Source: Candidatus Levyibacteriota bacterium (GTDB lineage: Bacteria > Patescibacteriota > Microgenomatia > Levybacterales > UBA12049). From it: a stretch of DNA of 64,000 bases. Below are positions 33,121-61,463 of this stretch, one piece after another (the stretch's first letter is position 1; every line of letters starts with the position of its first letter). The notes under the pieces were generated by a model. The model ran no database searches. It had not been told where the DNA came from and saw only the letters and a list, made by a program, of their open reading frames with translations. The translations under genes were made by a program, and so were the position numbers. Where the stretch lies: the NCBI GenBank assembly GCA_041906785.1, contig JAYRIM010000023.1, positions 64,019 through 128,018 on the forward strand, in the 5' to 3' direction.

Positions 33121-33151
33121 CCTCAATTTCTGCTATAATAAACCTCATCGT

Positions 33152-36120: not shown

Positions 36121-36173
36121 CTAGAAAAGTAATTTATTACTATGTTCAGTTTAAATTAAAAATAGTAATTATT

Positions 36174-37145: not shown

Positions 37146-38374
37146 AGATAGCTCAACCTCGACTTTTTGAACCAATTGATACAACACTTCGTGAAGGAGC
37201 ACAATCACCTCTTCTGGATGACACTAATAAATTTTTCTTTTCGCAAAAAGAGAAATTAGATCTTATTGATGCGTTATCTAGATTTGGTGTTCGCTATTTT
37301 GAAGTTTTTTCTCCTATAGTTAGTCAACAAGAACATCAAGATTTATTAGCAATAATTGCAAAGAAAAAAGAGCTTCAGGATGAACTGAAAACGAAAATTT
37401 TTATTTTGTCACATGTGCGTTGTCATCCTGCTGATATCGAATTAGCGATAAACGCAGGAGTAGACGGCTTAAATATATATATAGGGACGTCTGAACATTC
37501 ACGAAAGTATAATCATGGAAAAGAATTAGACACGATTATAGGAAAGGCCAGACCTCTTCTAGCTCAGATAAGAAAACAAAATCCTCATATGATAATTCGA
37601 TTTAGCGGAGAAGATGCATTTCGAACTTCTGAAAAAGATCTTTTTTATGTCTATGATCAGATAATAGAATATGTCGATCGACTCGGTACACCAGACACTG
37701 TTGGAATAGCAGATCCAGAACATATTGCTAAAAGAATACAAGCTCTAAAAAAACGCTATCCTCATATACCGCTTGAAGGACACTTTCATAATGATCGGGG
37801 TTTTAGTTTAGTGAATGCATTGACTGCTGTGTATAATGGAATGGAATTTATCAATACCTCTATTTTAGGATTAGGCGAACGTTCTGGAATAACTTCAATG
37901 ACTGGTCTTTTCCTTAATTTATATCTACACGATCCTACGTATTTAAAAAAATTTGACAGTTCTGTTATGTACGCTTTAAACGTATTAGTGGCAGACATGT
38001 TAAACATACAAGTACCTACAACAGAACCTGTCAGTCTTACAAACCGAACCCATTCTGCTGGTGTACATACAGGTGCTCAGCTGAAAGGTAGTAGCGCATA
38101 TGAAGCACTTCCTTTAGCGGAGTTTGGGGTGAATGAGACGAGATTACTCCTAGGACCGCTCAGCGGATCACATATTATTCGGTATTATCTCAAACATATT
38201 TTAAATTATGCAGTAAATGATGAAATTGTTCCAGTGATTACTAACGAATTTAAAAATCGGATATATAAAAAGACAAAAAAACAAACTCCAACAGTAGTAT
38301 TAGAACAGATTGCCAAATCATTTAAAATCCCACATATTTCAAGACCTGTAGCACACGAGGAGTATCTTCAGTAG
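37142..38374 (+). CDS. LeuA/NifV-family (DRE-TIM metallolyase) 2-oxoacid:acetyl-CoA condensing enzyme - homocitrate/citramalate/Re-citrate-synthase-like
   Basis: DTTLREGAQSP (canonical DTTLRDGEQ), LEGHFHNDRGFSLVNALTAVYNGMEFINTSILGLGERSGITSM (HxH…GxGERxGN), LLLGPLSGSH (LGKHSGRHA). 410 aa. ATGA overlap with murB. Confidence 0.7.
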   Translation: MKIAQPRLFEPIDTTLREGAQSPLLDDTNKFFFSQKEKLDLIDALSRFGVRYFEVFSPIVSQQEHQDLLAIIAKKKELQDELKTKIFILSHVRCHPADIELAINAGVDGLNIYIGTSEHSRKYNHGKELDTIIGKARPLLAQIRKQNPHMIIRFSGEDAFRTSEKDLFYVYDQIIEYVDRLGTPDTVGIADPEHIAKRIQALKKRYPHIPLEGHFHNDRGFSLVNALTAVYNGMEFINTSILGLGERSGITSMTGLFLNLYLHDPTYLKKFDSSVMYALNVLVADMLNIQVPTTEPVSLTNRTHSAGVHTGAQLKGSSAYEALPLAEFGVNETRLLLGPLSGSHIIRYYLKHILNYAVNDEIVPVITNEFKNRIYKKTKKQTPTVVLEQIAKSFKIPHISRPVAHEEYLQ

Positions 38375-38392: not shown

Positions 38393-39883
38393 TTAGTATT
38401 TGTACGGATACCCGCTATTGCCTGTATTTAACATAAAGTAAACAATAACAATTGCGACAATAAAGTACACAAGAAGCCAAAGGAAAGTTGCCACGAAGTT
38501 CAAAACTCCCCAGACCAATCCTCGTTTCGTACCTATAATATATGAAGGAGCTATGAGTAATGCGAAGTACACACCGAGAGAGAAAACCAGTATCATTAGT
38601 GACAGTAATGTATTAAAGGTATAATCATATGAATATTTGTTTATAACGAATGAATACAGGAAAAATATAAGTAGCGTATGTATAGTCGCGAAAAGTGAAG
38701 TGAAAAAACTTACGCCAGATGTAATAAGAAAGCTTTTTTGTACTGATGATAATAACGCATGTTGATCTGTCGCAGGCTGTACATTTCGCCGGGATCGTAT
38801 TTTCTTAATCATTATAAAAGCTATAATAATAATTACTGCTAATAAGAAAAGTAATACAAGAGCTCCTATGAGTACCTCTTTACCGTATAGTCTCCATAAG
38901 CTTTTCGCATATGCACCTTTCACCGTATAGGTTTCCATTGGACTCAAATTACTTGCATATTTTGTTAAAGAACCATAGCCGATATTATTTATGAAATCAT
39001 CAAGTTGATAGCTGCGAATTTCATCATCAGAATCAAATGATGAAGGTCGTAATGAAGTGCTAAGTCCCTGATTATATCCTACAGAACCTGATCCACCTTT
39101 AAGAACATAATCCTGTTCTGTAGAAATACCTACTTGTAATGAACTGATGGTGTTGTCTGTCTTTAATGTTTTAAATTCATATCGATAGACTTGAAACAGA
39201 TCTTCTGAAGTAAAATCAGAAGTTCTATAACTTAGTAAAAGAGTAGTAGATTCATTTGATGAGGTAGGATTTGGTAAGGTTATTTTTAATCTGTCTCCTT
39301 CTCTATCTACAGATGCTTTTTTGTATATATAGCTACTGGAACTATAATCTGTATAACAATCATCATTAGGAACTGGATATGCTTTCGACGATTCAGAATA
39401 TCCAGGGGTAGGTGTAATTGGATATGCAGTGGGAGTTGGATAATAATATGATCCATCTTCCTTATACATTGGTTCTGAAAGTGGATATGGAGGATTAGGA
39501 AGATATGGATAACATGATTTTTGTGGTCTATATAACTGCTCAAGTGCTACTACATCACGTATTTCTTGAGAACTCGGTAATTCATAAGTTAAAGTTTTAA
39601 TTGAACCTTCACTTATACTAGATAAAAGTACCCGTAGACTGACAACTGCCTCACCATTACCCCGAAGATATACAGAATAATAATGTGTCTCACCAAAAAA
39701 GAGTGGCTGCTTATATGAAGGTGGAGGAACTCGAATTGGCATTAATTTTTCCTGAGCTCTACTTTGTGAAATAAAGAGAGGTAAACCGAAAAGTAAAAGA
39801 CCTATGGTGATGAATGTTAAACGAAGAATATGATTTCGCATACTAAATATAGTAGAGCATATGAATAGAGCGATGTCAATCAA
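38393..39883 (-). CDS. Hypothetical secreted/membrane protein: signal peptide, Pro/Tyr/Ser-rich extracytoplasmic domain, multi-TM C-terminal region
   Basis: Probable start MRNHILRLTFITIGLLLFGL (about 39841). Low-complexity PTPTAYPITPTPGY region. About 5 C-terminal TM helices. No family recognised. Confidence 0.45.
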   Translation of the reverse strand: MIDIALFICSTIFSMRNHILRLTFITIGLLLFGLPLFISQSRAQEKLMPIRVPPPSYKQPLFFGETHYYSVYLRGNGEAVVSLRVLLSSISEGSIKTLTYELPSSQEIRDVVALEQLYRPQKSCYPYLPNPPYPLSEPMYKEDGSYYYPTPTAYPITPTPGYSESSKAYPVPNDDCYTDYSSSSYIYKKASVDREGDRLKITLPNPTSSNESTTLLLSYRTSDFTSEDLFQVYRYEFKTLKTDNTISSLQVGISTEQDYVLKGGSGSVGYNQGLSTSLRPSSFDSDDEIRSYQLDDFINNIGYGSLTKYASNLSPMETYTVKGAYAKSLWRLYGKEVLIGALVLLFLLAVIIIIAFIMIKKIRSRRNVQPATDQHALLSSVQKSFLITSGVSFFTSLFATIHTLLIFFLYSFVINKYSYDYTFNTLLSLMILVFSLGVYFALLIAPSYIIGTKRGLVWGVLNFVATFLWLLVYFIVAIVIVYFMLNTGNSGYPYKY

Positions 39884-42182
39884 CCGCTTCCCTCCTAGCC
39901 TGAAAAGCTCTATAATAGCACCTATGTACTGGGCTGATACTATTGCAAAAGAAATTAAAAAACGCGGTCTTACTCTAGAATGGGTTGATGATATGAAAAC
40001 ACCCTCTGGAAGAATTCATGTAGGATCTCTTCGTGGTGTAATCGTACATGATCTTGTATATAAAGCCTTAAAAGATACAGATGTGAAAACTAAATACACC
40101 TATGTTTTCGAAGATCAAGACCCTATGGATGATCTTCCTGTATATTTACAACGAGAAAAATATGAAAAATATCTGGGACTACCTCTTTTTAAAGTTCCAT
40201 CTCCAGAACCAGGATATGCTCACTATGGAGAGTTTTTTGCTTTAGAATTTAAACAAGTTTTTAATGCTATTGGTTGTCAACCAGAAATTATTTGGACTTC
40301 CCACCTCTATAAAAGTGGAAGAATGAATACAGACATCAAACTGTGTCTCGATAACGCTGCAGATATTCGAAAAATCTATGAGGAACTGTATAAAAAACCT
40401 ATGCCAAAAGATTGGTATCCTTTTCAAGTGTATTGCGAAAACTGTGGGAAGGTTGTAACGACAAGAGTATTTGCTTGGGACGGTGTAAAAGTTTCATATA
40501 GATGTGTAAAGAATGCGGTAGACTGGACTAAAGGATGTGGATATGAAGGAAAAGTAACACCTTTCAGTAACGAACAAGGAATGACAGGAAAGTTACCATG
40601 GAAAATAGAATGGCCTGTCAAATGGAAAGTTATTGGAGTGACTGTCGAAGGAGCTGGAAAAGACCATATGAGTGCCGGTGGATCACATGATTTTGCTAAA
40701 TTAGTTTGTGAACGAATTATAGATTACCCAGTACCCTATCCTTTACCATATGAGTTCTTCCTTGTTGGAGGTAAAAAAATGTCCTCTTCAAAAGGCAGAG
40801 GTACTGCAGCTATAGATATGCTCGAAATCTTACCTCCAGAAATTCTTCGATTCCTTATGGTAAAAACAAAGCTAAATCAAGCAATCAATTTTGATCCTTC
40901 TGGAGATACTATTCCTAAATTATTTGACGAATATCAAAAAGCAGCAGAAGCATATTTAGAGAAAACTGATACTGATTTAGCGAGAGAATTTGAATTATCC
41001 CAAATAGATGGAGTACATAAACCACCTACTATACGCTTTTCAGCACTTACCCAGTGGATACAAATGCCTAATATGGAGAGCAAAATAAAGGACGAAGGAT
41101 TAGAAGAGTGGGCCAAATTTGCTCGTACATGGGTTGACCGATATGCGCCAGAATCAGAAAAATTTGTTGTTCAAAAAAATACACCGTCTGAAGCAAATAA
41201 TTTAACCTCCAATCAAAAATATTATTTACAATTAATCGCTGATGAACTTGAAAAAACTCGTAGCCCAGAAGAATTACAATTAAGAATGTATGAAATTTCT
41301 CAAGAAAGAAATCTCTCTTCTAAAGAAGCTTTTGCTGCCATTTATACTGCTTTACTAGGTAAAAACCATGGTCCTAAAGCCGCATGGCTGTTATTATCTC
41401 TTGATAAACAGTTTGTAAAAGAAAGATTCACAAAAATCTCATCCAATAAAACCTCTCAGGAAAACCCAAGAAATATTACAAAACTTAATCGTCCCGAGTT
41501 ATTTCACATAGACAAGCAAGTCAGCGGAAACTATCCCACGATCTCTGTCGGTTTAGCAATAATAAAAAATATTAACGTTCGTAAAAGTAATGATACTCTC
41601 GAGAAAGAAAAAGAGACGCTTCTAAAAAATTTTGAGGAATTAACAACAGAACAGCTTGGGGCATATCCAGAAATACAAAGTTATAGAAAATTATATAAAC
41701 AGATGGGTGTTGATTGGCATTCACGTCGGCCAAGTCCCGAAGCACTGCTCCGAAGAGTGGCGTTAAAAAAAGGACTTTACACCGTAAATACGTGTGTCGA
41801 TGCGTATAACCTTGTTGTAATGAAAGAAAGAGTTTCAGTAGGAGCGTTTGATTTAGATAAACTGCAATTCCCAACTCTTATGCGTTTTCCTAAACCGGGT
41901 GAAGAAATACTCCTCTTAGGAGATAGTGAACCAACTGCGTATAAAGAGACAGAGCTTGCATATTTTGATCAACAGGGAGGATATAACATTGACTTCAATT
42001 ATAGAGATGCTCAAAGGACGGCAGTGACTGAACAAACAAAAAATGTATATATAAATGTTGATGGTATTTACGATATTACTCCAGATAAAGTGCAACAAGT
42101 TCTAGAAGAAACCTGCGAGATTATAATGAAATATTGTGGGGGAAAATTAGAACTTTTCGGTGTACAATTAGCAAAAGAATAG
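39861..42182 (+). CDS. lysS: Class I lysyl-tRNA synthetase fused to a C-terminal B3/4-type domain (PheT editing-domain fold)
   Basis: Class I aaRS motifs PSGRIHVGSLRG (HIGH-type) and KMSSSKG (KMSKS), archaeal-type LysRS-I core. Residues about 530-773 carry YPEIQSYRKLYKQMGVDWHSRRPSPEALLRRVALKKGLYTVNTCVDAYNLVVMKERVSVGAFDLDKL, resembling the B3/4 domain. Probable start MYWADTIAKE (about 39924). Confidence 0.8.
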   Translation: MNRAMSINRFPPSLKSSIIAPMYWADTIAKEIKKRGLTLEWVDDMKTPSGRIHVGSLRGVIVHDLVYKALKDTDVKTKYTYVFEDQDPMDDLPVYLQREKYEKYLGLPLFKVPSPEPGYAHYGEFFALEFKQVFNAIGCQPEIIWTSHLYKSGRMNTDIKLCLDNAADIRKIYEELYKKPMPKDWYPFQVYCENCGKVVTTRVFAWDGVKVSYRCVKNAVDWTKGCGYEGKVTPFSNEQGMTGKLPWKIEWPVKWKVIGVTVEGAGKDHMSAGGSHDFAKLVCERIIDYPVPYPLPYEFFLVGGKKMSSSKGRGTAAIDMLEILPPEILRFLMVKTKLNQAINFDPSGDTIPKLFDEYQKAAEAYLEKTDTDLAREFELSQIDGVHKPPTIRFSALTQWIQMPNMESKIKDEGLEEWAKFARTWVDRYAPESEKFVVQKNTPSEANNLTSNQKYYLQLIADELEKTRSPEELQLRMYEISQERNLSSKEAFAAIYTALLGKNHGPKAAWLLLSLDKQFVKERFTKISSNKTSQENPRNITKLNRPELFHIDKQVSGNYPTISVGLAIIKNINVRKSNDTLEKEKETLLKNFEELTTEQLGAYPEIQSYRKLYKQMGVDWHSRRPSPEALLRRVALKKGLYTVNTCVDAYNLVVMKERVSVGAFDLDKLQFPTLMRFPKPGEEILLLGDSEPTAYKETELAYFDQQGGYNIDFNYRDAQRTAVTEQTKNVYINVDGIYDITPDKVQQVLEETCEIIMKYCGGKLELFGVQLAKE

Positions 42183-42277: not shown

Positions 42278-43147
42278 ATGAAGAAACTCGCATATCTGCT
42301 TATCCCTATTATTATAGTAGGGTTTATAGTATACGCACTCTTTACATTCTTTATATTCAGCGATAATGGCAAGGGAGCACTTCAAATAACATCAAAACCT
42401 TTTAGTAAAGTCTATTTAAACGGTTCTTATATAGGTACAACGCCATTATGCCGATGTGAAGCGCATACAATGATCGCAAGTGGAACATATACATTAAAAC
42501 TCGTACCTTTAGAAAAAGGACTTCCTGAATATGAGGAACAAGTAAAAATAAATAAAGGAGTTTTGTCAGTTGTAGATAGAAAAATTGATACAGGAGTGTA
42601 TTCAGAAGGAAGTGTTATTACGTTAGATACTCTTCCTGATAAAAATGCTGCAGAACTTTTAGTCATCACATTCCCCGATAAAGCTGACGTATTTATTGAT
42701 GCAAATCCGGAGGGGACATCTCCTTTACATCGAACAGAGCTCACAGATTCTGACCATACCATAAGAATTAAAAAAAATGGCTATAAAGATAAAACTGTAA
42801 GGATACGTACTCCTTCAGGTTATAAGCTCACAGCACGTGTCTATCTAAGTATTCTCAAAGACGATGAACAGATACTGCCAATACCGACTCAAGCAGTTAC
42901 ACCATCTATTACTCCAGTACCGACAGGAAAACAGCAAATATCGATTCGAATTCTTGAAACCCCAAATGGATTTTTACGTGTTCGGGAACAAGCCTCTACT
43001 GATGCTTTAGAAATCGGCAGAGTGTCTACTGGAGAAACATTCCAGGTGCTTGAAGAACAAAAAGGATGGTATAAGATTTCTCTCCAAAATGGAACAATTG
43101 GTTGGATCAGCGGCCAATATGTTACCAAACTAACGACTAACGACTAA
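42278..43147 (+). CDS. PEGA-domain protein with C-terminal SH3b-like domain
   Basis: N-terminal TM, PEGA-like FIDANPEGTSPL motifs, C-terminal GWYKISLQNGTIGWISGQYV typical of bacterial SH3. Confidence 0.6.
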   Translation: MKKLAYLLIPIIIVGFIVYALFTFFIFSDNGKGALQITSKPFSKVYLNGSYIGTTPLCRCEAHTMIASGTYTLKLVPLEKGLPEYEEQVKINKGVLSVVDRKIDTGVYSEGSVITLDTLPDKNAAELLVITFPDKADVFIDANPEGTSPLHRTELTDSDHTIRIKKNGYKDKTVRIRTPSGYKLTARVYLSILKDDEQILPIPTQAVTPSITPVPTGKQQISIRILETPNGFLRVREQASTDALEIGRVSTGETFQVLEEQKGWYKISLQNGTIGWISGQYVTKLTTND

Positions 43148-43159: not shown

Positions 43160-44119
43160 TTACGTTTGTCCCCCAATAACGTAGATAATAATCATTACCA
43201 TTAATGCCCAGAGAACAACAGTTGCTAAGAGCGGTCTATCTGAAAAAAGAACTCTTTCGGGACTTTCACCTTCATGTTTCTCATAGATATCTTGAAGATA
43301 CCGCATCAAACCGTATACTACAGGTAGAATTGTTAACATGAGCCATTTTCGTTGTAAATATGCTGGGAGATATTCTGGTAAAAAAAGATCATTCGTAACT
43401 GTTAGTGATTGTTGCGAGTTTTCTAGAAATGTAAACAACGCATATGAAATAAATGTAGATGTAGCGAAAATAGAAGCATAGACATCTAATAAACGTTCAG
43501 AATAGTGAGAGAGAGATTTTCTTACCGCTGTGATATTTGCACTATTATGCTGAGAAACAAGAGTTAACTCTCTTCTTCGTTTTCCTACAGCGAGAAAAAG
43601 TGAAAGTGAAATAGTCGTTAATAACAACCAAACTGAAATATGATATTGAAAACCAATTACTACTTCTCCAGCATATACCCGAAGTATATATCCTCCAGCT
43701 AAAGCCAGAATATCAATGATCGCAATATGTTTCAAAAACATAGAATACGAGAGTTGCAACACAAGATAAATAATTGTGATAGCTAAAAATGCAGGCGAAA
43801 TTAGATAACTTCCTATAAGTGAAAACGTAATTAGGACAAAAGAAAGCACTTTCGCCATGTGTACTGGTATATCATTATTTGCCAGAGGTCGGAATCGTTT
43901 AAAAGGATGAAGTTTATCCTTATCTTTATCAAATATATCATTAATTATATAAATCCCGCTTGATATGCCACAGAAAATTATGAATCCATAAAAAACTCTG
44001 AGAAGATACTCTTCATAGAATAGAAGACCTGAAAACAAAATAGCAGCAGTAATCGCGAAGTTTTTAATCCATTGCCTGGGACGCAATAATCTAAAATAAT
44101 TACGTAGTAGTTTTTTCAT
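43160..44119 (-). CDS. UbiA-family prenyltransferase, decaprenyl-phosphate phosphoribosyltransferase (DPPR synthase)-like
   Basis: LLRPRQWIKNFAI…NDIFDKDKDKLHPFKRFRPLANN closely follows the Rv3806c-type motif (LRPKQWVKN…ND..D...D..HP.K..RP.A.G). Confidence 0.7.
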   Translation of the reverse strand: MKKLLRNYFRLLRPRQWIKNFAITAAILFSGLLFYEEYLLRVFYGFIIFCGISSGIYIINDIFDKDKDKLHPFKRFRPLANNDIPVHMAKVLSFVLITFSLIGSYLISPAFLAITIIYLVLQLSYSMFLKHIAIIDILALAGGYILRVYAGEVVIGFQYHISVWLLLTTISLSLFLAVGKRRRELTLVSQHNSANITAVRKSLSHYSERLLDVYASIFATSTFISYALFTFLENSQQSLTVTNDLFLPEYLPAYLQRKWLMLTILPVVYGLMRYLQDIYEKHEGESPERVLFSDRPLLATVVLWALMVMIIIYVIGGQT

Positions 44120-45182
44120 GCTTTTGACGCAAGAGTATATGTAAAAAAGATAAACCTCCTCCTACGATTGCAAGCAGCATGATTAATGCAAATAATTTAT
44201 TTCTACTTTGCAAATGCAATGCAGCTATTCCTAATATAGCAGATATTGACCAGTAAAACAACGCAATTTGTCTTTGTGTCCAACCAAATTGTAATAAAAG
44301 ATGATGTAAATGTTTTCTATCCCCTCTAATTGGAGATTGTCTGGTTAAAATTCTTCTCATTATAGTAAATAAGGCATCAACAGTAGGTATTCCTAACACT
44401 AAGATTGCTGTTGCCAGTTTAGCGCTCGATAACATTGAAACTACTGCGAGCAGCAAATATAAGGATGTTGCTCCATAACCAGGAAAAATTTTTGCAGGAT
44501 GAAAATGATAAAAAAGAAAACCTAAACTACTTCCAGCAATTATAAACGACAGTTTTGCTTCTACAATAACGTTTGGATCTAATAGAGGAAAACGTAAACT
44601 TAATATTCCTATAACGATAGCGGCAATAGCGACGATACCCGGCATCTGACCATCAACTCCACTACTCCAATTAAGCATATTCACTACCCAAATAATCCAT
44701 ATACCGGCAACTAATTGCGAAAGCAGAATATATTGGTCAAATAATAACGGAATTCTAAAGGTATCAAAATGAAGGATTCCACCAAGCGGACTTGTTATAA
44801 ATGGAACAGTTACTCCGCTTCCCACCACAATAATCGCACATAAAATATTAACTAGGAAACGAAAATATGGCGAAAGATCTTTTGATTCAGCATTCAATTT
44901 GTCATCGATAACACCAATAGCGAGAGCTACAAAAGCTGAGAGAAAAATTGCAGCTATCATATTAGTCCATGGAAGAAAAAAAACTGCTGGGATAAAACAA
45001 CCAAAAAACAGTGCTATACCTCCGCCCCGAGGAATGGGTTTCGTGTGAAGAATAGCTGGATGGTTTCTTTTAGGATCATCTAAAAGCCCATATTTTGTAG
45101 CGTATCGGATAACAAACGGCGTTAAAAAAATTGTCACAAGAAAGGCAATAGTTAGAGGTAAAAGTAATATATCAATATACAT
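44100..45182 (-). CDS. Glycosyltransferase family 4 polyprenyl-phosphate N-acetylhexosamine-1-phosphate transferase (MraY/WecA-like)
   Basis: 10-11 TM, YGLLDDPKRNHPAILHTKPIPRGGG and DDKL…motifs of the MraY/WecA superfamily. Overlaps neighbours at both ends. Confidence 0.8.
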   Translation of the reverse strand: MYIDILLLPLTIAFLVTIFLTPFVIRYATKYGLLDDPKRNHPAILHTKPIPRGGGIALFFGCFIPAVFFLPWTNMIAAIFLSAFVALAIGVIDDKLNAESKDLSPYFRFLVNILCAIIVVGSGVTVPFITSPLGGILHFDTFRIPLLFDQYILLSQLVAGIWIIWVVNMLNWSSGVDGQMPGIVAIAAIVIGILSLRFPLLDPNVIVEAKLSFIIAGSSLGFLFYHFHPAKIFPGYGATSLYLLLAVVSMLSSAKLATAILVLGIPTVDALFTIMRRILTRQSPIRGDRKHLHHLLLQFGWTQRQIALFYWSISAILGIAALHLQSRNKLFALIMLLAIVGGGLSFLHILLRQKHEKTTT

Positions 45183-45185
45183 ATT

Positions 45186-45539
45186 TTATATAACAAGTAA
45201 ACTTGTCCTGATAATAAAAATTGATAACGCGAGAGTCACAAATAACGTTGTTATACTCACCATACGGACAATAAGAGGCATATGTTTATATGCGTATTGT
45301 GAAAAAATAATATTAATAAGAATAATACCACCCGTTAAAATAATTGGTAAGAATAACGTTACTTTCCCACCTAATCGTTCCATTCCCCATGGCAGTTGAT
45401 TAAAAACAGGAATGAATGGCGGAAACCTTCCGTATAAAAAAATTGTATAAAAGAAAGTAATTGCCAATAAAAAGCAGGAAACTAAATAACTTCTTTTAAC
45501 AATTCTATCTCTTTTTAAAGTGTTAAAGGCTTCTCTCAT
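45186..45539 (-). CDS. Small hypothetical 3-4 TM membrane protein within the glycosyltransferase cluster
   Basis: 117-aa hydrophobic ORF tightly packed between the GT-C and GT4 genes. Confidence 0.4.
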   Translation of the reverse strand: MREAFNTLKRDRIVKRSYLVSCFLLAITFFYTIFLYGRFPPFIPVFNQLPWGMERLGGKVTLFLPIILTGGIILINIIFSQYAYKHMPLIVRMVSITTLFVTLALSIFIIRTSLLVI

Positions 45540-47043
45540 AAATTTCTGTTCCTTCTAGTGAAAATAAGTACCTATATTCTTCCGGAATAAAAGATGGATA
45601 TTTTTCATCAGTCGTAATTATAATATATTTAGGTTTTACCTTCTTCATATCCTGCTCCATTTGAGTTACTGCTTCTTTCATGACAATATGATATGCGACA
45701 GTGTATTTATTAATCGGTTGTGTTTTTGATAAATAGTAAATTTGTGCACTATTACTCCATATAAAAACTTTATCATCTGCTTTAGTATGCTTTCTCAAGA
45801 ATGTTGCAATTGCATAGTCTCGTACATTACCATAATCGAAAAAACTTTGGTATGATGCAAAATTTTTTCTATGTACAATAAGGTCTATAAAATTTTGATA
45901 ATATTTTATAGTTTTTCTAGTAGTCCAATTATCGAAATGTTTATTCATGACAAAAAATGAAATTACTAAAAGCGTAAAAACCACGAGATTAGATACTGAT
46001 TTTTTCCTTATAAAAAGCAACCCAATCATGAGAGAAAAAGCAGGTAATGTAACAAGTATATAGTGGGTGTAAGGACGTTGTGAAAAAAAAGCATTAAAAA
46101 GAGAAAACGCAACCCAGATAAAAATAAATAGTATATATTTCTCAATTCGGTTTTTGAAATGATAAAGAACAAAAAGAGTGAAAAGTAATAAAAGACATTT
46201 TATAACAAGTAATCCTTGACCAAAAATAAATTCATTTTTCCATCCTACATATGACAAATTACCTGCTAGTGTGGCATCAAGAAAAAATCCTAAAGAACCT
46301 ATACTTACATAGTAAGCTAAGCAGAAAGAATAAGGCAATAAAAATCCGACTATAAAACTAAGAAGAAACTTTTTACTGTGTTTTAATACTTTAGCTATCT
46401 CCATATATGAACCATTTAATTTTGAAAACAAATAAAACATAAGTAAGGTAAGGAAATCAAACGCTGCAACAACTTTAAAAAGAAAGCTAATTCCTAAAAA
46501 CAAACCGCATCCGAAGATTAAGCTGTTATGTATTTTTTTTCTATTTAAAACTGTATAAAAGATAAAAAAAGAAAGAAGTGTAGGTAAGATCATAAAGTTT
46601 TCCGCATTTGCGATATTTCCTTCGATAATAGGTGAACCAAAAAAAACAGCAAATATCCCGGTACTTATAAAAGCTATACGGTTCTCCTTAAAAAGCGATT
46701 TCGCAAAAAGAAAAAACCAAACAATTGCTCCCATTCCTATAATGAGAGAAGCTGTACGAATTAAGAATAAATCACCATGGAACAATGCGTATACACTATA
46801 TAAAAGAGGCGGTTTGTTATCCCAAATATCTCTATAAAGTAATTTTCCTGAAAGCATTCCCTGAGAAACTGTCTGTGTAATACCTTCATCGCCATACCAA
46901 TAAGGCTCAAATAATGAAGGAAAACGTAGTAGAAAAAATCCAAAAATAAATACAAGAAGCAACCAAAAAGATTTACTTTTCTCTATTCGATCTATTATTT
47001 TCATAATTTTCCATTTATCATCTTCCATTTTTGTTTCCTTCAT
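45523..47043 (-). CDS. GT-C fold glycosyltransferase (ArnT/PMT family, GT39/GT83-like), polyprenyl-phosphate-sugar dependent
   Basis: Multi-TM with YWYGDEGITQTVSQGMLSGKLLYRDIWDNKPPLLY, resembling the first extracytoplasmic loop (DE motif) of ArnT/PMT-type enzymes. Confidence 0.7.
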   Translation of the reverse strand: MKETKMEDDKWKIMKIIDRIEKSKSFWLLLVFIFGFFLLRFPSLFEPYWYGDEGITQTVSQGMLSGKLLYRDIWDNKPPLLYSVYALFHGDLFLIRTASLIIGMGAIVWFFLFAKSLFKENRIAFISTGIFAVFFGSPIIEGNIANAENFMILPTLLSFFIFYTVLNRKKIHNSLIFGCGLFLGISFLFKVVAAFDFLTLLMFYLFSKLNGSYMEIAKVLKHSKKFLLSFIVGFLLPYSFCLAYYVSIGSLGFFLDATLAGNLSYVGWKNEFIFGQGLLVIKCLLLLFTLFVLYHFKNRIEKYILFIFIWVAFSLFNAFFSQRPYTHYILVTLPAFSLMIGLLFIRKKSVSNLVVFTLLVISFFVMNKHFDNWTTRKTIKYYQNFIDLIVHRKNFASYQSFFDYGNVRDYAIATFLRKHTKADDKVFIWSNSAQIYYLSKTQPINKYTVAYHIVMKEAVTQMEQDMKKVKPKYIIITTDEKYPSFIPEEYRYLFSLEGTEIYERSL

Positions 47044-47098
47044 TGACTTGTCTATTCCTTAAATGACAAATGGAACTTGGAAAATGAAAAATAAAATA

Positions 47099-48592
47099 TT
47101 ACACCTTATCTGTTACCTTATATTCTAAACGCTTGCCAAGCATTAACTGGGTATGAGAAATGAGGGCAGGCAAAGCAGAAAGAAAAAATCCGACAATAGG
47201 CATAAGTATAAACTCAAACGGAAAAAGTATTTTTTTATAACGAGGTAAGTCTTTATTAGTAGGTCTATTTTTATAATCAATATAAATCATTGCTACTAAC
47301 GCAATGAGTGTAGACGTTAAAATTAAACCAGCAAGCTGTGGTAGTTTATATCCTAAAGCCGTCCGTGAATATACAGGATTAAGTATAGGCATAATATTTG
47401 CAAAAACAGTAATAATAAACCAATTCACCGGCCACAGTAAGTGATCGCTGAAGACATTAAATAGTAATAACGTTTTTCTAAAAAAAGGAACTCCAGGAAC
47501 AGTAAACCACCATTTAATAAAAAGCGGATTATCTGAAACACCCCATGACCATCTCCGTTCCTGGTTATATTTATTCTTTAGACTATTTATATAACCTGCA
47601 GATAACGCTGCGTCCATTGATGTTTTTAGAAATAAAGGGTCAACCCATATATTCCCTTTTTTATGATAAAAAGCCTTGAAAAAAATACGATAATCTTCTG
47701 GAATAACATCTGCATCCCAAAAATCTACTTCCTTCAGTAACTGAAAGGACAATGAATAAGTAGAATGGGTGAGTAAACGATCTCCTTGAATAAGTAATGC
47801 TATACGCCATAAACTGCCGAAAAATGAAATAACTCTAGTAGGAGCTGGAACTTGCCAAATGTTGTTATAAAAAACAATAGCAGATTGCCAGAACTTGTTA
47901 TAGCGTTTTTTATCTGAGAGGAAAAGATATCCAAGATATGCAAAAAACTGCTTATCAAAAATAGCGTCAGCATCAGCTGTAGTTACAGTCGCGTATTGTA
48001 TATCGAGTTTTTCAGTTTCAAAAAGTTTTTTATCTACTTCCCTTGCAGCGTATGCTTCATTTGATGATTTTCCTTTCACTTCACCTGGAACATCTGGGTG
48101 ATATGTAGCAATAATGCCTCCGAAAATCGAATTAAATTCACTAATTAGTACCTCTGCCTTCTCTTTTGCTGTTTCTTCACGCTCTTCCATGGCTAGCACT
48201 ACATATATATTCTTTAAAGGAAAGGTCTGGAGTGATAATGTTTGTATGGTTCTTCGCAATTTTTCAACTCTCTCTTTATAATTAGGAAGAATTATAATAT
48301 GTGAAACTTTTTTGTTATGTTCTAAAGTAGTAAATTTTTCAAGCCAATTTTCTTCTTCAGCTTTACGGATCTTCTTAGAAGCCATATATGCAGTAACAGA
48401 AAGGAGAAAAGATTTATAAAAATAATATACATCAAAAAACAGTATGGCATATGCTAGCATTGCGGGAAAAAAGATAGATCCCCAAAGTGGAAGAGTAATA
48501 ACAGTCCAGGTTATAAATCCAGGTAGGATTTCTAAAAACCGACGGGTTTTTATTGGATACCTTGTAAAAATCTTTTGAAAAAATGGTGTCAT
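47099..48592 (-). CDS. Membrane-integrated processive family-2 glycosyltransferase (cellulose/hyaluronan-synthase-like; DxD and QxxRW motifs)
   Basis: TADADAIF (DxD), QERRWSWG (Q[RQ]xRW). TM helices at both N- and C-termini flank the cytoplasmic GT-A domain. Confidence 0.7.
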   Translation of the reverse strand: MTPFFQKIFTRYPIKTRRFLEILPGFITWTVITLPLWGSIFFPAMLAYAILFFDVYYFYKSFLLSVTAYMASKKIRKAEEENWLEKFTTLEHNKKVSHIIILPNYKERVEKLRRTIQTLSLQTFPLKNIYVVLAMEEREETAKEKAEVLISEFNSIFGGIIATYHPDVPGEVKGKSSNEAYAAREVDKKLFETEKLDIQYATVTTADADAIFDKQFFAYLGYLFLSDKKRYNKFWQSAIVFYNNIWQVPAPTRVISFFGSLWRIALLIQGDRLLTHSTYSLSFQLLKEVDFWDADVIPEDYRIFFKAFYHKKGNIWVDPLFLKTSMDAALSAGYINSLKNKYNQERRWSWGVSDNPLFIKWWFTVPGVPFFRKTLLLFNVFSDHLLWPVNWFIITVFANIMPILNPVYSRTALGYKLPQLAGLILTSTLIALVAMIYIDYKNRPTNKDLPRYKKILFPFEFILMPIVGFFLSALPALISHTQLMLGKRLEYKVTDKV

Positions 48593-48608: not shown

Positions 48609-48704
48609 CATCCGAATAGTAGAAAAATTCTATTATATACGAATTTCTACGAATAATTAGATATTCGAATACATTCGAATATAATTTGTAGTCATTCGGA
48701 TTAC
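48609..48704. repeat. Inverted-repeat-bounded element (ATCCGAAT … ATTCGGAT) enclosing 4-5 direct TTCGAATA/TACGAAT repeats, upstream of the GT2 gene
   Basis: Arms 48611..48618 and 48696..48703 are reverse complements. Internal TACGAAT / TTCGAATA copies at about 48639, 48649, 48664, 48674. Confidence 0.55.
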
Positions 48705-49501
48705 CTTAATTTACCAAATATAGTATACACGTTCTTTGTGGTTTGTTCTACGAAATCCTGATATGGTACTGTTTTTAACTCTGCAAGGAATTTTGCAGTA
48801 TGAATGATATATGCAGGTTCATTTCGCTCCCCTCTATGTGGAACTGGCGTTAAAAATGGCGTATCTGTCTCAACAACCATTCTTTCTATTGGAACATAGG
48901 CTGCAATATCTCTCAGATCTGTACTTTCACCGGGTGCTAAACCTTTATAAGTAATATTCCCATCAAAACCTATAAAAAAATCTAAATCTAAAGCATCTTT
49001 TAAAAATTGCATAGACCCTGCAAAACAATGAAACATTCCTGGCACTTTCAGCAAAGAATTCTTATAATATCGTAAAATTTCTATAACATCCTCCCCAGCC
49101 TGTCTATTATGGATCTGCAATGGTAACTTTAACTCGTAAGCCAATTCTATTTGTTTCTCAAATGTTTCTTTCTGTATTTTTGGATCAACTATTCCATTTG
49201 ATTTATAGGAAAAATAATCCATGCCGATTTCTCCTATCCCTATAACTTTTTCATGGTTTGCAAGTTTCCTCAGTTCCTCCAACCAATTATCCTCAAGTTT
49301 ATCAGCATGGTGTGGATGGTATCCGACTATTGCATACATCTGCTCATATTGCTCTGCGAATAGGACTGCCTTCTGACTTGAATCGAGCTTTGTCCCAACA
49401 TTTATTATCCGTGTCACTCCAGCATCAAATGCTCGTTTTGCTACGGCTTCATAGTCGTTTTGAAAAGAGTGAAATTGTAAATGACAATGAATATCGATCA
49501 T
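48701..49501 (-). CDS. tatD: TatD-family metal-dependent hydrolase/DNase
   Basis: MIDIHCHLQF…VGYHPHHAD…GEIGMDY…ETDTPFL. Confidence 0.85.
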   Translation of the reverse strand: MIDIHCHLQFHSFQNDYEAVAKRAFDAGVTRIINVGTKLDSSQKAVLFAEQYEQMYAIVGYHPHHADKLEDNWLEELRKLANHEKVIGIGEIGMDYFSYKSNGIVDPKIQKETFEKQIELAYELKLPLQIHNRQAGEDVIEILRYYKNSLLKVPGMFHCFAGSMQFLKDALDLDFFIGFDGNITYKGLAPGESTDLRDIAAYVPIERMVVETDTPFLTPVPHRGERNEPAYIIHTAKFLAELKTVPYQDFVEQTTKNVYTIFGKLR

Positions 49502-49518: not shown

Positions 49519-50223
49519 TTAGAAAAGACGAACGAAGGCAGCAAAAACAGTACCAACAGTATACGCTATTACGCTATATGTTGCTAAAGGATATCTTTTA
49601 TATTCACTTTTCACTTTTATAAAAAAATATACGCTGATACCAGTAAAAATAACTGCATATACTAAACCGACTAAAACTTTATCAAATGCAGCGTACGCGA
49701 AAATCGCAAAAGCATAGATAAACGCATTCAAAATCAGTAGTAGCATTTCTTTTTTCCTCATCTGTTTTTGTGGATTTTTCTGTTCAAACAATAACAAAGG
49801 TAGATTCATCAATATTGCTCCAATAAAGTAAAGTATGTTTCCAAAATAATAATCATTGAAGAACATTCCATTACACTGGATTGTACTTAAACGGTCAATA
49901 GGACAGTATGTATTAAAAAAGAAACTCGCAAGCTCGTGAATACCATTTCCTGTTGCATAGAAATAAATGCCACTAATAAAAATAACTCCTAATAGTATTC
50001 CTCTCCTTGTTTTTAATAAATCAAAATTTCTCGTCACTTCTTTTAACAACAAAAATGGAATGATAACCGTAAAAAGAATTAACGTAACAATCTGAAACAC
50101 CTCATGTAAACGTAGGAAATTAAAAGGTTGTAGTAGAACCTTCGTCGTGAAAGAAAAACGCTCAATAGTCACTAATAAAACGTTTAAAGAGGAAAAGGAA
50201 ATAAGATAAAGTATTCGTTTCAT
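49519..50223 (-). CDS. Hypothetical polytopic membrane protein
   Basis: 234 aa, about 6 TM. Overlaps the upstream HAD gene by 4 nt. Confidence 0.4.
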   Translation of the reverse strand: MKRILYLISFSSLNVLLVTIERFSFTTKVLLQPFNFLRLHEVFQIVTLILFTVIIPFLLLKEVTRNFDLLKTRRGILLGVIFISGIYFYATGNGIHELASFFFNTYCPIDRLSTIQCNGMFFNDYYFGNILYFIGAILMNLPLLLFEQKNPQKQMRKKEMLLLILNAFIYAFAIFAYAAFDKVLVGLVYAVIFTGISVYFFIKVKSEYKRYPLATYSVIAYTVGTVFAAFVRLF

Positions 50224-50870
50224 AAAGTATTAAATAATTGTTGAACCTCATTCCATGATTTAATTGTGTAGTCTGGCTTTGTCTGTTTCAACTGATCAAA
50301 ACTATAAATCTTTTTATGTTCTTTCGGAAAGAATAGCGCTGTTTTCGCCCCTGCTGCCTTTCCCATTATCATATCGCTTTTTGAATCTCCTATCACTAAG
50401 CATTCTTCAGGAAGTACTTTTAATGCTGAGCTAGCTTTTATTACAGCATCAGGCGCTGGTTTAGGATTCTCTACGTCTTCATAGGCTAAAACTATTTGGA
50501 AGTAATCTTTTAAAGCATGTGTAAGAAGCATCCGATCTATATACCATCTGTACGCAAAAGAAATAACCCCTAAATGTATATTCATTCCTTTTGCAGATTT
50601 CAAAACTTTAACAACATCGGAGAAAAGCGTCGCTTTTGCTGAAAATTCTTCGCAAGCACTAAAATATATCCTTTTAAATTCATTTACATGTTCAGGAATA
50701 CCAAGATTTTCACAAATAGTTTCTTCTGTTTTACCAAAACACTGCTCAACAATTTCTTTTTCTGTGAGAAAAATATCAAAAGTTTTGAGTGCTCTACTAT
50801 ACGCTTTTGGATATAACCATAGAGTATTTATTATTGTCCCGTCGAAATCACAGAGTAGTGCTTTTATCAT
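50220..50870 (-). CDS. HAD-superfamily hydrolase, subfamily IA (phosphatase/beta-phosphoglucomutase-like)
   Basis: LLCDFDGTII motif I, motif II/III present (…ISFAYR…, GDSKSDMIMGKAAG). Confidence 0.75.
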   Translation of the reverse strand: MIKALLCDFDGTIINTLWLYPKAYSRALKTFDIFLTEKEIVEQCFGKTEETICENLGIPEHVNEFKRIYFSACEEFSAKATLFSDVVKVLKSAKGMNIHLGVISFAYRWYIDRMLLTHALKDYFQIVLAYEDVENPKPAPDAVIKASSALKVLPEECLVIGDSKSDMIMGKAAGAKTALFFPKEHKKIYSFDQLKQTKPDYTIKSWNEVQQLFNTL

Positions 50871-58805: not shown

Positions 58806-58820
58806 CTCTGCAACTCTTAA

Positions 58821-59609: not shown

Positions 59610-59611
59610 AA

Positions 59612-60403: not shown

Positions 60404-60472
60404 AAAAAGAATTAGCGATTAGCGAATAAGCGATTAGCTTCTAGATTTTAACTAAACGCTAGACCTCATGTT

Positions 60473-61450: not shown

Positions 61451-61463
61451 AAGCGTAAAGCAA

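Follow-up and report, generated by a model that had tools for sequence, protein, structure and literature searches.

A conserved Levybacteria gene cluster for a predicted cell-envelope glycan with a putative lipid-linked pentofuranose module

Five consecutive genes of an uncultured Candidatus Levybacteria bacterium (CPR/Patescibacteria) appear to represent a conserved operon whose products build a cell-envelope glycan with a module for lipid-linked pentofuranose, a reading to which we give a probability of roughly 0.55. They run from 48592 to 43160 on the minus strand of the window, i.e., the 64-kb stretch of DNA that was analyzed, where the ORF listing gives exactly five consecutive reading frames; all of them code for membrane enzymes or membrane proteins (Table 1). 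In gene order, the first two genes are 55 nt apart, the sm117 frame starts 17 nt within the end of the GT-C gene, the GT4 gene follows after 3 nt, and the start of UbiA_319 overlaps it by 20 nt. Such tight junctions fit a single operon.

Table 1. Genes of the cluster and of its surroundings in the window
Feature	Position	Strand	Description
GT2_497	47099..48592	-	497 aa; first gene of cluster
GTC_506	45523..47043	-	506 aa; GT-C fold, ArnT/PMT-like
sm117	45186..45539	-	117 aa; three-helix membrane protein without family match
GT4_360	44100..45182	-	360 aa; MraY/WecA superfamily, WecA/TagO-like
UbiA_319	43160..44119	-	319 aa; PPPRS/DPPR synthase, Rv3806c family
TatD-family hydrolase	48701..49501	-	Pfam TatD_DNase, E 1e-80; TIGR00010
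Membrane-anchored PEGA + SH3b protein	42278..43147	+	Pfam PEGA and SH3_3; one N-terminal transmembrane segment
HAD-IA phosphatase	50220..50870	-	HAD_2, E 1e-35; PpaX/phosphoglycolate-phosphatase-like

The five-gene order is kept in nearly all of 84 related loci, which come from different species-level genomes (>80 species), and this recurrence indicates that the cluster is more than chance. Gene presence was counted in 82 of these 84 loci: UbiA was found in 82, GT4 in 81, sm117 in 80, the GT-C gene in 78, and the GT2 gene in 74, missing genes being mostly explained by contig ends. Order and tight or overlapping junctions persist in approximately 78 of the 82 loci at 40 to 87% protein identity. 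The five genes are thus predicted to form a conserved Levybacteria operon, the linkage of their functions resting on synteny. The families that the original prediction had proposed for them, a processive GT2, a GT-C, a small membrane protein, a GT4, and a UbiA protein, all hold.

By its sequence, UbiA_319 is a polyprenyl-phosphate 5-phosphoribosyltransferase of the Rv3806c clade. It scored 223 bits with the NCBIfam DPPR-synthase model NF008978, above the cutoff of 207, and 228 bits with NF008977, below the cutoff of 234, and it matched the Rv3806c structure (PDB 8j8j) with an E value of 7e-41 and 35% identity. All 13 residues of Mycobacterium tuberculosis Rv3806c that contact PRPP, Mg2+, and decaprenyl phosphate are kept: R13, K19, Y57, N60, D64, K74, R77, Q122, Y125, K130, Y144, K180, and K201 of UbiA_319 correspond to R22, K28, Y70, N73, D77, K87, R90, Q135, Y138, K143, Y157, K191, and K208, respectively, and 12 of the 13 positions are invariant among 25 orthologues. 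The proposed match to decaprenyl-phosphate 5-phosphoribosyltransferase is thereby borne out. An aromatic prenyltransferase of the UbiA/MenA type is what about half of the JGI annotations of the orthologues state ("4-hydroxybenzoate polyprenyltransferase"), and the Pfam match of UbiA_319 is to the generic UbiA family; however, models for aromatic and heme prenyltransferases gave at most 48 bits, those for ubiA, MenA-type, and heme O enzymes 23 to 31 bits, and UbiA_319 has every one of the phosphoribose-binding residues that separate Rv3806c from UbiA enzymes (K28, Y70, Q135, Y157, and the K/R cluster). By model scores the protein thus falls with Rv3806c, and an assignment to MenA, UbiA, or heme O enzymes is effectively refuted by these scores and residues, an aromatic function being extremely improbable.

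GTC_506 is a GT-C glycosyltransferase of the ArnT/PMT type and is predicted to use a polyprenyl-phosphate-sugar donor. Enzymes of this class work with polyprenyl-phosphate sugars at the outer face of the membrane. GTC_506 itself gave no Pfam match, and its orthologues carry PF02366, PF13231, and PF27757 (PMT/PMT_2) and are annotated as GT39 or "phospholipid carrier-dependent glycosyltransferase." Its AF2 model (pLDDT 88, pTM 0.89) retrieved ArnT (5f15) as the best Foldseek match (E value of 5e-6), followed by AglB, DPY19, OST, Pmt4, EmbB, and AftD. About 10 transmembrane segments are predicted, and the motifs E46-P-x-W-Y-G-D52-E53, in the first loop, and D75-N-K-P-P79 are invariant. NCBI places the start of this gene 5 codons later, giving a protein of 501 aa.

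GT4_360 is a predicted polyprenyl-phosphate sugar-1-phosphate transferase of the MraY/WecA superfamily and is WecA/TagO-like. It matched Pfam Glycos_transf_4 (E value of 3e-21); among NCBIfam models, wecA scored best with 77 bits (cutoff, 326), and mraY gave 58 bits (cutoff, 192), neither passing. MraY structures were the best PDB matches of its profile (E value of 6e-15). Approximately 10 transmembrane segments are predicted, and D93-D94, D288, and H291-L-H293-H294 are invariant among orthologues of about 60% identity.

The model of GT2_497 suggests a hyaluronan/cellulose-synthase-type family-2 glycosyltransferase that is embedded in the membrane. Its Pfam match, Glyco_tranf_2_3, is weak (E value of 0.0046), and its orthologues, which are approximately 70% identical and uniformly 497 aa long, carry PF13632. 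The AF2 model is of moderate quality (pLDDT 73), poorest around the QERRW helix; its best Foldseek matches were Cv-HAS (7sp7), Xl-HAS1 (8smm), and BcsA (4p00/4hg6), with E values of 1e-7 to 1e-6. Model helices form N-terminal and C-terminal transmembrane blocks, of which four segments pass the hydropathy threshold. The motifs D207xD209, PEDYR (298 to 302), and QERRW (344 to 348) are invariant in 40 orthologues.

The small protein sm117 remained without a match in Pfam, NCBIfam, and PDB searches, also with a 34-sequence profile. It has three predicted transmembrane segments and a conserved loop, LPPxIPxFNQLPWGxxRL; P44, W51, G52, N76, and R92 are invariant, and N47, Q48, and R55 occur in at least 90% of the sequences. 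In a set of 1.8 billion proteins, the family comprises only 202 cluster representatives, each about 117 aa long and none fused.

Our best reading of the cluster is a lipid-linked pentose donor that feeds an extracytoplasmic GT-C. UbiA_319 would transfer ribose-5-phosphate from PRPP to polyprenyl phosphate at the cytoplasmic face, and the product would be 5′-dephosphorylated by a phosphatase and flipped by a flippase. The resulting polyprenyl-P-ribofuranose would be the donor from which GTC_506 adds pentofuranose to an acceptor at the surface. This acceptor would most likely be a glycan that GT4_360 initiates on polyprenyl phosphate and/or GT2_497 polymerizes and exports. The acceptor may be a protein or a glycan; CPR bacteria are rich in pili. 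No flippase of a known family (GtrA/MATE) and no dedicated phosphoribose phosphatase was found linked to the cluster. The sole unassigned flippase candidate in it is sm117, for which no similarity to GtrA was found. The HAD-IA phosphatase upstream is a weak candidate for the missing 5′-phosphatase: it scores under every equivalog cutoff, is a variable insert between the MetRS and TatD genes found in this position only in the window and three related loci (L005, L006, and L084), and showed no similarity to the HAD-IB phosphatase that adjoins the PPPRS of Lactococcus.

As to the sugar, a decaprenyl-P-arabinose-type pathway as in Corynebacteriales, in which PPPRS, a phosphatase, and DprE1/DprE2 provide lipid-linked D-arabinofuranose for the GT-C, appears unlikely. 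UbiA_319 does belong to the Rv3806c family, and PPPRS-DprE1-DprE2-GT39 clusters exist beyond Actinobacteria, on a Chondrinema plasmid and in the Pseudomonas aeruginosa pilin system cited in PMC11127046. Epimerase genes lie inside the cluster in known systems, but no DprE1-like or DprE2-like gene was found in the window or in approximately 1.5 Mb of the 84 related neighborhoods: the window yielded no FAD/ALO-type oxidase or DprE2-like SDR, and tblastn searches of the window and the 84 loci with the DprE1-like and DprE2-like proteins of Chondrinema found no match. The search covered these regions rather than whole Levybacteria genomes, and epimerase genes may lie outside them; in one relative (L082), an SDR epimerase/dehydratase gene directly follows the UbiA gene. 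Since none is linked to the cluster, D-ribofuranose is more likely than D-arabinofuranose, and lipid-linked ribofuranose is the product by default. Of the lipid-linked pentose pathway first proposed, the link to a GT-C is supported, PPPRS being genetically locked to this gene across the lineage, and the arabinose part is not.

Two further alternatives separate the pentose enzyme from its neighbors. GT2_497 could synthesize a polyprenyl-phosphate hexose (GtrB/GacI/DPMS-like), sm117 acting as a GacJ-like activator and GTC_506 as a GacL/YfhO-like enzyme; the PPPRS would then stand apart from a classical three-component system for hexose side chains. The archaeal DPMS-like PcManGT (6yv7) is indeed also a good structural match of GT2_497 (target-normalized TM-score, 0.60), and the set parallels the streptococcal group A carbohydrate side-chain genes, which code for the WecA-like GacO, the GT2 GacI, the small activator GacJ, and the GT-C GacL. 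Both have these four kinds of membrane proteins in common, the small one, of about 115 aa, being encoded next to the GT2 and the GT-C. However, GacI is a GtrB-type lipid-P-GlcNAc synthase, whereas GT2_497 resembles HAS: full-length synthases, HAS and BcsA, lead its structural matches, it has transmembrane blocks at both termini, and the QERRW and PED motifs that are invariant in it typify processive synthases. GacJ belongs to the DUF2304 family, whereas sm117 matches neither this nor another family; the Gac system also lacks the PPPRS present in Levybacteria. We consider a hexose synthase very unlikely.

Mere colocation of separate pathways has some, if modest, probability. GTC_506 would then be a PMT/GT39-like protein O-glycosyltransferase (acting, e.g., on pilin or S-layer) or a lipid-P-hexose user, GT2_497 would serve an independent exopolysaccharide, and the UbiA product would go to another GT-C paralogue. 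This agrees with the PMT/PMT_2 matches and GT39 names of the GTC_506 orthologues and with the first-loop D52-E53, which we take to resemble the PMT "DE" motif. The GT-C gene is the least conserved of the cluster (about 44% identity among orthologues), is not in its usual place in L027 and L078, and is set apart by his genes in L082, with the other four genes retained; GT-C paralogues lie near the cluster in L078 and L084. The UbiA product therefore need not feed GTC_506. Against separate pathways stand the persistence of gene order and junctions across the loci, the bridging of the GT-C and GT4 genes by sm117 with overlapping frames, and the fact that the PPPRS product has no known use except as a GT-C donor (PMC11127046, PMC10994848).

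In other bacteria, an established pathway already pairs a phosphoribose synthase with a GT-C. PPPRS, a flippase, and a GT-C add α-pentofuranoses extracytoplasmically, Ribf if there is no epimerase; this pathway was characterized in Citrobacter and reported to be widespread, occurring in Gram-negatives and Gram-positives and in a phage (Kelly et al., PNAS 2024, PMC11127046). Annotated DPPR-synthase genes already exist on replicons from Lactococcus, Bacteroidota, Alphaproteobacteria, cyanobacteria, and haloarchaea. The original prediction overstated its case in calling such a pathway notable outside Actinobacteria; new here are the lineage, the constant association with a synthase-type GT2 and a GT4, and the orphan protein sm117.

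In Citrobacter youngae O1/O2, ORF15 is a PPPRS-PRP, ORF14 a MATE flippase, and ORF12 a GT136 GT-C (PMC11127046). As in Levybacteria, a UbiA-fold PPPRS adjoins a GT-C in a glycan gene cluster, and ArnT is the closest solved relative of the GT-C; the sugar is Ribf where no epimerase occurs, as is predicted here. The Levybacteria PPPRS, in contrast, has no fused HAD PRP domain, there is no MATE flippase, and the GT-C belongs to a PMT_2/GT39-like sequence family; the module is part of an operon that is conserved throughout the lineage and also encodes a synthase-type GT2 and a GT4, not of a variable O-antigen locus, and the host, a CPR bacterium, is presumed to be monoderm. The mycobacterial and corynebacterial decaprenyl-P-arabinose and arabinogalactan cluster (Rv3806c UbiA, Rv3807c, DprE1/E2, Rv3789, AftA/B, Emb, and GlfT2, with WecA elsewhere) shares the Rv3806c-family enzyme with its substrate contacts and a parts list of WecA-type initiator, GT2, GT-C, and small membrane protein. 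Unlike there, DprE1/E2, a PAP2 phosphatase, and a homologue of the GtrA-like Rv3789 were not detected in Levybacteria; the GT2 is a membrane-embedded synthase whereas GlfT2 is soluble, and the single GT-C is of a family other than Emb/Aft.

In the P. aeruginosa group IV pilin system, as cited in PMC11127046, PPPRS, DprE1/E2 homologues, and the GT-C TfpW mediate D-arabinofuranosylation. It likewise combines PPPRS and GT-C beyond Actinobacteria, and a protein could be the acceptor, but the Levybacteria cluster contains neither epimerase genes nor a pilin gene. The EPS cluster of Lactococcus cremoris plasmid pF27D encodes a hypothetical 462-aa membrane protein, PPPRS, a HAD-IB phosphatase, and GtrA, with no epimerase, and a cluster on a Chondrinema litorale plasmid encodes PPPRS, a FAD oxidoreductase (DprE1-like), an SDR (DprE2-like), and GT39. 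In these glycan clusters of non-actinobacterial hosts, the PPPRS is homologous to UbiA_319 (31 to 38% identity over aligned regions; E values of 1e-30 to 1e-53), whereas the helpers (HAD-IB and GtrA; DprE1/E2-like) have no counterpart in the Levybacteria loci, and no sequence relationship of the accompanying GT-Cs to GTC_506 was detected.

The TatD gene lies immediately upstream on the same strand and adjoins the GT2 gene in 71 loci, with a gap of 4 to 12 nt in L001 and L083; it is probably cotranscribed with the cluster. Adjacency of MetRS and TatD genes is common in Firmicutes, and the gene is most likely a legacy MetRS neighbor rather than a pathway enzyme. At the other end, the convergent PEGA + SH3b gene directly follows the UbiA gene in 80 of 82 loci; its product may be a wall-binding protein with a putative link to the pathway. 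T4SS_pilin-like genes occur several kilobases upstream of the cluster in L083 and L084 only.

The five genes of the proposed polyprenyl-phosphate-linked glycan assembly cluster were all found to be real, consecutive open reading frames (ORFs) on the minus strand (see the table). From GT2_497 to UbiA_319, successive genes lie 55 nt apart, overlap by 17 nt, lie 3 nt apart, and overlap by 20 nt, a tight packing as expected for a single transcription unit. A scan for promoter and terminator consensus sequences between positions 42000 and 53600 revealed sites that did not rise above those of shuffled sequence, and the operon boundaries are thus defined by spacing only. The window has a GC content of approximately 35%, and a Pfam scan of most of its ORFs of at least 110 aa revealed the housekeeping gene set of a small-genome bacterium; tRNA and Rfam RNA searches of the window found none. 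Homologues of the cluster proteins that carry real names come from Candidatus Levybacteria/Levyibacteriota or the "Patescibacteria group," and the Levybacteria lineage lies within the Microgenomates group of the CPR. A literature search combining CPR, Patescibacteria, or Levybacteria with UbiA, polyprenyl, decaprenyl, or glycosyltransferase returned no paper on the cluster.

Features of the window and of related loci (L numbers). Identities are those to the window proteins in tblastn searches of related loci.
Feature	Position	Strand	Description	Identity (%)
Five-gene cluster	43160-48592	minus	GT2_497 to UbiA_319	
GT2_497	47099-48592	minus	497 aa, synthase-type GT2	60-79
GTC_506	45523-47043	minus	506 aa, predicted GT-C	37-52
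sm117	45186-45539	minus	117 aa, orphan membrane protein	29-62
GT4_360	44100-45182	minus	360 aa, MraY/WecA superfamily	55-71
UbiA_319	43160-44119	minus	319 aa, predicted phosphoribosyltransferase	62-87
PEGA + SH3b gene	42278-43147	plus	Membrane-anchored protein	
HAD-IA gene and membrane protein gene	49519-50870	minus	Between MetRS and TatD	
HAD-IA phosphatase	50220-50870	minus	PpaX-like	
Lysyl-tRNA synthetase	39861-42182		Class I, 773 aa	
orf496	38393-39883	minus	496 aa, no family	
Inserted genes around MurB	30914-38374			
ATP-citrate-lyase-like genes	33095-36120		Two subunits	
HMGL/homocitrate-synthase-like gene	37142-38374			
ClpB/ClpC-like genes	9614-16628	minus	Three AAA+ genes	
ABC-2 genes	57199-61841	minus	Four permeases, one ATPase	
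Region upstream of TatD	L078:3569-6309		GT-C-like and 462-aa membrane proteins	
Histidine-biosynthesis genes	L082:3350-6764		Between GT2 and GT-C genes	
SDR epimerase/dehydratase gene	L082:10978-12015		Directly after UbiA gene	
T4SS_pilin-like genes	L083:2580-3845			
T4SS_pilin-like genes	L084:3399-4595			

UbiA_319, encoded by the last gene of the cluster, matched only the generic UbiA family in Pfam. It passed the NCBIfam model NF008978 for decaprenyl-phosphate phosphoribosyltransferase (DPPR synthase; 223.3 bits, cutoff 207) and scored slightly below the cutoff of a second such model, NF008977 (228 bits, cutoff 234). Scores were 150 bits with the HAD-fused "UbiA family" model and at most 48 bits with models for heme O synthase, ChlG, UbiA, and GGGP-type and aromatic prenyltransferases. 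Its only relatives of solved structure are the cryo-EM structures of Mycobacterium tuberculosis Rv3806c (E value of 7e-41, 35% identity over 225 aligned residues). Gao et al. listed the Rv3806c residues that bind Mg2+, pyrophosphate, ribose, the 5-phosphate, and decaprenyl phosphate, namely R22, K28, Y70, N73, D77, K87, R90, Q135, Y138, K143, Y157, K191, and K208, and the phosphoribose contacts are absent from ordinary UbiA enzymes (PMC10994848). All 13 are kept in UbiA_319, and 12 of them are invariant in 25 orthologues. N60 and D64 align to the Mg2+/pyrophosphate ligands N73 and D77 of the NDxxDxxxD motif, and R13, K74, R77, K130, and K201 to the K/R cluster R22, K87, R90, K143, and K208; at K201, the sole variable contact, 24 of the 25 orthologues have K or R. 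The invariant residues K19, Y57, Q122, Y125, Y144, and K180 match K28, Y70, Q135, Y138, Y157, and K191, phosphoribose or lipid-phosphate contacts that separate Rv3806c from UbiA enzymes using prenyl diphosphates.

Because of the model scores and of contact residues that include phosphoribose ligands not common to ordinary UbiA enzymes, we assign UbiA_319 as a polyprenyl-phosphate phosphoribosyltransferase (PPPRS), a predicted activity on which all available sequence tests agree and to which we give a probability of about 0.85. This bears out the original prediction of a DPPR-synthase-like enzyme; the protein does not group with MenA or heme O enzymes, and a role as a quinone or heme prenyltransferase was rejected on the NCBIfam scores. 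About half of the JGI annotations name its orthologues "4-hydroxybenzoate polyprenyltransferase." Judging from the same comparisons this label is wrong, and it calls for correction, as it would falsely imply quinone biosynthesis in organisms devoid of it.

When one genome was scanned for each species, 412 genomes proved to have a UbiA_319 relative, and the best 80 of these are Levybacteria-type. The "uncultured Gammaproteobacteria" titles among the relatives are placeholders used in one series of MAGs, and the few soil MAGs with other labels show the same synteny. Using tblastn with the window proteins, we found the order TatD-GT2-GT-C-sm117-GT4-UbiA, followed by a convergent PEGA/SH3 gene; the order from TatD to UbiA is kept in essentially every sufficiently long locus, including independently fetched ones. 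The GT-C gene lies two genes upstream of the UbiA gene in approximately 78 of the 82 loci scored. In L027, it is absent within 20 kb; in L078, its usual slot is empty and a 430-aa GT-C-like gene is found upstream of TatD; and in L082 only, histidine-biosynthesis genes separate it from the GT2 gene. Together with the identities, these exceptions indicate that the four-gene core is extremely stable and that the GT-C is its fastest-evolving and most movable companion. The GT2 and the PPPRS evolve very slowly, with approximately 70% identity across the lineage, and such components in a strictly conserved operon point to an important surface glycan.

Several neighbors of the cluster were also considered. 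MetRS and TatD form an old conserved pair, also in Firmicutes, and TatD was rejected as a pathway enzyme on that ground. The gene for a PEGA and SH3b protein follows the UbiA gene immediately in 80 of 82 loci; its product is a possible partner that binds the wall or a glycan. In L082, the gene directly after UbiA codes for an SDR epimerase/dehydratase that may alter the pentose made; since no other locus has it, it was discarded as a general feature. The region upstream of TatD in L078 also codes for a 462-aa multi-helix membrane protein, which may be DUF2079-like, with relatives in L038, L054, L060, and L072.

The sequence of GTC_506 itself, the second protein of the cluster, matched nothing in Pfam or NCBIfam; its orthologues carry PMT, PMT_2, and PF27757 domains and are annotated as GT39, as ArnT-like, or as "phospholipid carrier-dependent glycosyltransferase." An AlphaFold model computed with 40 sequences (pLDDT of 88, pTM of 0.89) had as its top match in the PDB ArnT with bound undecaprenyl phosphate, followed by archaeal and yeast oligosaccharyltransferases, DPY19, Pmt4, EmbB, and AftD (E values of 5e-6 to 8e-4 for ArnT, AglB, DPY19, OST, and Pmt4). 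The protein has approximately 10 hydrophobic segments and then, at the C terminus, a small alpha/beta domain. Following the first helix, a loop harbors an invariant E-P-x-W-Y-G-D-E motif, with D52-E53 just past TM1, and then D-N-K-P-P; this is where the catalytic acid of GT-C enzymes sits (PMC11127046). By its modeled fold, GTC_506 belongs to the GT-C superfamily (ArnT/PMT-like, GT-C_A). As a candidate second GT-C we considered the product of orf496, which was rejected because it has a large extracellular domain and four C-terminal helices instead. That protein is found only in the window and in its closest relative, L003, and consists of a signal or anchor helix and an extracellular region of approximately 300 aa rich in Ser, Tyr, and Pro ahead of the C-terminal helices.

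GT2_497, the product of the first gene, gave a weak Pfam match, and its orthologues carry PF13632. Its sequence is strongly constrained, with approximately 70% identity, and nearly all relatives are exactly 497 aa long. Across 40 sequences, D207-x-D209 (DAD207-209), P-E-D-Y-R (298-302), and Q-E-R-R-W (344-348) do not vary. The structural model (pLDDT of 73, poorest at residues 329-357 and at the C terminus) has helical blocks at both the N- and C-terminal ends, and its best PDB matches are the hyaluronan synthases of a Chlorella virus and Xenopus and bacterial cellulose synthase BcsA, ahead of soluble or two-helix GT2 enzymes. By motifs and model, GT2_497 is of the BcsA/HAS/chitin-synthase type, which predicts processivity. 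As an archaeal mannosyltransferase similar to DPMS is a fair structural match, we keep a lipid-phosphate-sugar synthase role as a minor rival; the ranking of the synthases among the structural matches favors the processive enzyme.

Membership of GT4_360, encoded just upstream of UbiA_319, in the MraY/WecA (PNPT) superfamily is secure by sequence comparison, with a Pfam E value of 3e-21. A search of the PDB with the single sequence gave no match, and only a 28-sequence profile reached MraY structures, its best relatives (E value of 6e-15). The protein scored below the NCBI equivalog thresholds for both wecA (77 bits against a cutoff of 326) and mraY (58 bits against 192), which places it in a divergent subfamily. 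As a lead, the D-D pair and the D-R-K-H-L-H-H segment, both invariant, may be WecA/TagO-like.

The remaining protein of the cluster, sm117, has three hydrophobic helices, with a strongly conserved loop between helices 1 and 2 (L-P-P-x-I-P-x-F-N-Q-L-P-W-G-x-x-R-L) that probably faces outward according to the positive-inside rule. Searches of Pfam, NCBIfam, and the PDB, as a single sequence or as a profile, assigned it to no family. Among 34 members, Pfam gave no recurring family (at best DUF5453 in 2 of the 34 and DUF1648 in 1, with an E value of 0.36), and no similarity to GtrA was found. Among 1.8 billion proteins, it is represented by only 202 cluster representatives, all of approximately 117 aa and stand-alone, and a "Rosetta stone" inference of its partner failed for lack of domain fusions. 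Candidate roles for sm117 are those of the missing flippase or of a subunit of the GT-C or the synthase.

Known systems provide points of comparison. [quoted passage not shown] Annotated PPPRS genes also occur on replicons of Lactococcus, Bacteroidota, Alphaproteobacteria, cyanobacteria, and haloarchaea. On the Lactococcus cremoris plasmid pF27D, an EPS cluster includes genes for a hypothetical membrane protein of 462 aa, a PPPRS, a HAD-IB phosphatase, and GtrA; a cluster on a plasmid of Chondrinema litorale includes genes for a PPPRS, an oxidoreductase that binds FAD, and an SDR, along with several GT39 genes. The combination of a DPPR-synthase-like enzyme with a GT-C, originally deemed notable outside Actinobacteria, is thus no longer surprising.

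Homologues of these helper functions were sought in the window and its relatives. Both the Lactococcus and Chondrinema PPPRS proteins matched the window and all 84 related loci. The Lactococcus GtrA, Wzx, and HAD-IB proteins and the comparator GT-C proteins matched none of these sequences, nor did the DprE1-like and DprE2-like proteins of Chondrinema by tblastn. Likewise, a profile of the Levybacteria GT-C showed no relationship to the GT-Cs beside the PPPRS of Chondrinema and Lactococcus. The Pfam scan of most window ORFs of at least 110 aa detected no FAD/ALO oxidase, DprE2-type SDR, PAP2 phosphatase, PRPP synthetase, MATE, GtrA, or Wzx protein, and the cluster itself contains no MATE, GtrA, or SMR flippase gene. 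The arabinose route invoked originally, with its DprE1/DprE2 pair, therefore finds no homologue in the ORFs scanned or in the 84 loci. It is possible that helper genes are encoded elsewhere in the genome, as the searches covered the window and these loci. UbiA_319 has no fused HAD domain. A HAD-IA phosphatase gene between MetRS and TatD, found only in the window, L005, L006, and L084, could be the source of the missing 5'-phosphatase, although nothing supports this role. The protein is generic and PpaX-like and bears no similarity to the HAD-IB of Lactococcus. Also encoded between MetRS and TatD in the window is a 234-aa membrane protein with five helices and no assigned family.

The Levybacteria cluster has the same logic as the Citrobacter system, a PPPRS with a co-encoded GT-C, and it differs in that no flippase of a known family and no known phosphatase were found by homology. 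Orthologues of its GT-C carry PMT/PMT_2 domains and the GT39 name. By analogy, we describe it as probably working like a three-component system, and the missing known flippase and phosphatase are why we do not file it as a canonical member. A more distant likeness is that to the mycobacterial decaprenyl-P-arabinose pathway. What sets the cluster apart from known systems is its CPR host, a lineage-wide conservation instead of a serotype-variable distribution, the fixed partnership of a HAS-like GT2 with a divergent GT4, and the orphan 117-aa protein. It reveals no new principle.

The sequence comparisons establish, as predicted functions linked across the lineage, a PRPP-dependent lipid-phosphate phosphoribosyltransferase, a GT-C from the class whose donors are polyprenyl-phosphate sugars on the outside of the membrane, a synthase-type GT2, and a polyprenyl-phosphate sugar-1-phosphate transferase. 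In the pathway that we propose, UbiA_319 would generate polyprenyl-P-ribose-5-P, and a phosphatase would strip the 5-phosphate. The lipid-linked ribofuranose would then be flipped, for which sm117 is the only candidate left in the cluster, and GTC_506 would move the pentofuranose onto a surface glycan that GT4_360 and/or GT2_497 would make or, possibly, onto a protein. Ribofuranose would be the default sugar, given that no epimerase is linked to the cluster (PMC11127046). The reading of the original prediction, a lipid-linked pentose donor feeding a GT-C, is strengthened by the PPPRS identity, the GT-C fold, and the lineage-wide linkage, and its arabinose branch is not supported, as the epimerase pair was not found in the window ORFs scanned or in the 84 loci. 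We lean slightly toward GTC_506 being the downstream user of the UbiA_319 product, and regard ribose rather than arabinose as an even call; that the acceptor is the GT4/GT2 product is a tentative suggestion. We consider it unlikely that all five genes form one machine building a Levybacteria-wide wall glycopolymer with ribofuranose drawn directly from PRPP and with sm117 as a new flippase or an obligatory GT-C or synthase subunit. Were it so, obtaining pentofuranose from PRPP and not from nucleotide sugars would be economical for bacteria with minimal metabolism, and the cluster would represent a minimal non-actinobacterial analogue of arabinogalactan assembly, with a WecA-type primer, a backbone from the GT2, and pentofuranosylation by the GT-C.

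To our knowledge, almost nothing is known from experiment about the envelope of CPR/Patescibacteria cells, even though it is the site at which these episymbionts contact their hosts. Besides annotation correction, the cluster contributes to CPR envelope biology a specific, testable hypothesis, the presence of PRPP-derived ribofuranose on the Levybacteria surface, and would add a new part of the bacterial tree to the range of the recently defined pentofuranosylation pathway. In L083 and L084, T4SS_pilin-like genes are found a few kilobases upstream of MetRS; they would be relevant only if the GT-C glycosylates pilins.

Other features of the window were noted. In some relatives, L001 among them, GreA, MurB, and LysRS are adjacent, and the window has extra genes inserted around MurB, coding for a Zn-alcohol dehydrogenase, a class I/II aminotransferase, two ATP-citrate-lyase-like subunits, which are unusual in a CPR genome, and an HMGL/homocitrate-synthase-like protein. 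The lysyl-tRNA synthetase has a C-terminal B3_4 domain, a domain of the PheRS beta subunit, that its orthologues of 507 to 524 aa in L001 and L083 lack. A NUDIX gene is interspersed among the three ClpB/ClpC-like genes (857, 553, and 548 aa), and the 548- and 553-aa products look like a Clp ATPase split into its N- and C-terminal halves. The four consecutive ABC-2 (ABC2_membrane_6) permease genes and their ATPase gene are preceded by a gene for a "23S rRNA intervening-sequence protein" (four-helix bundle).
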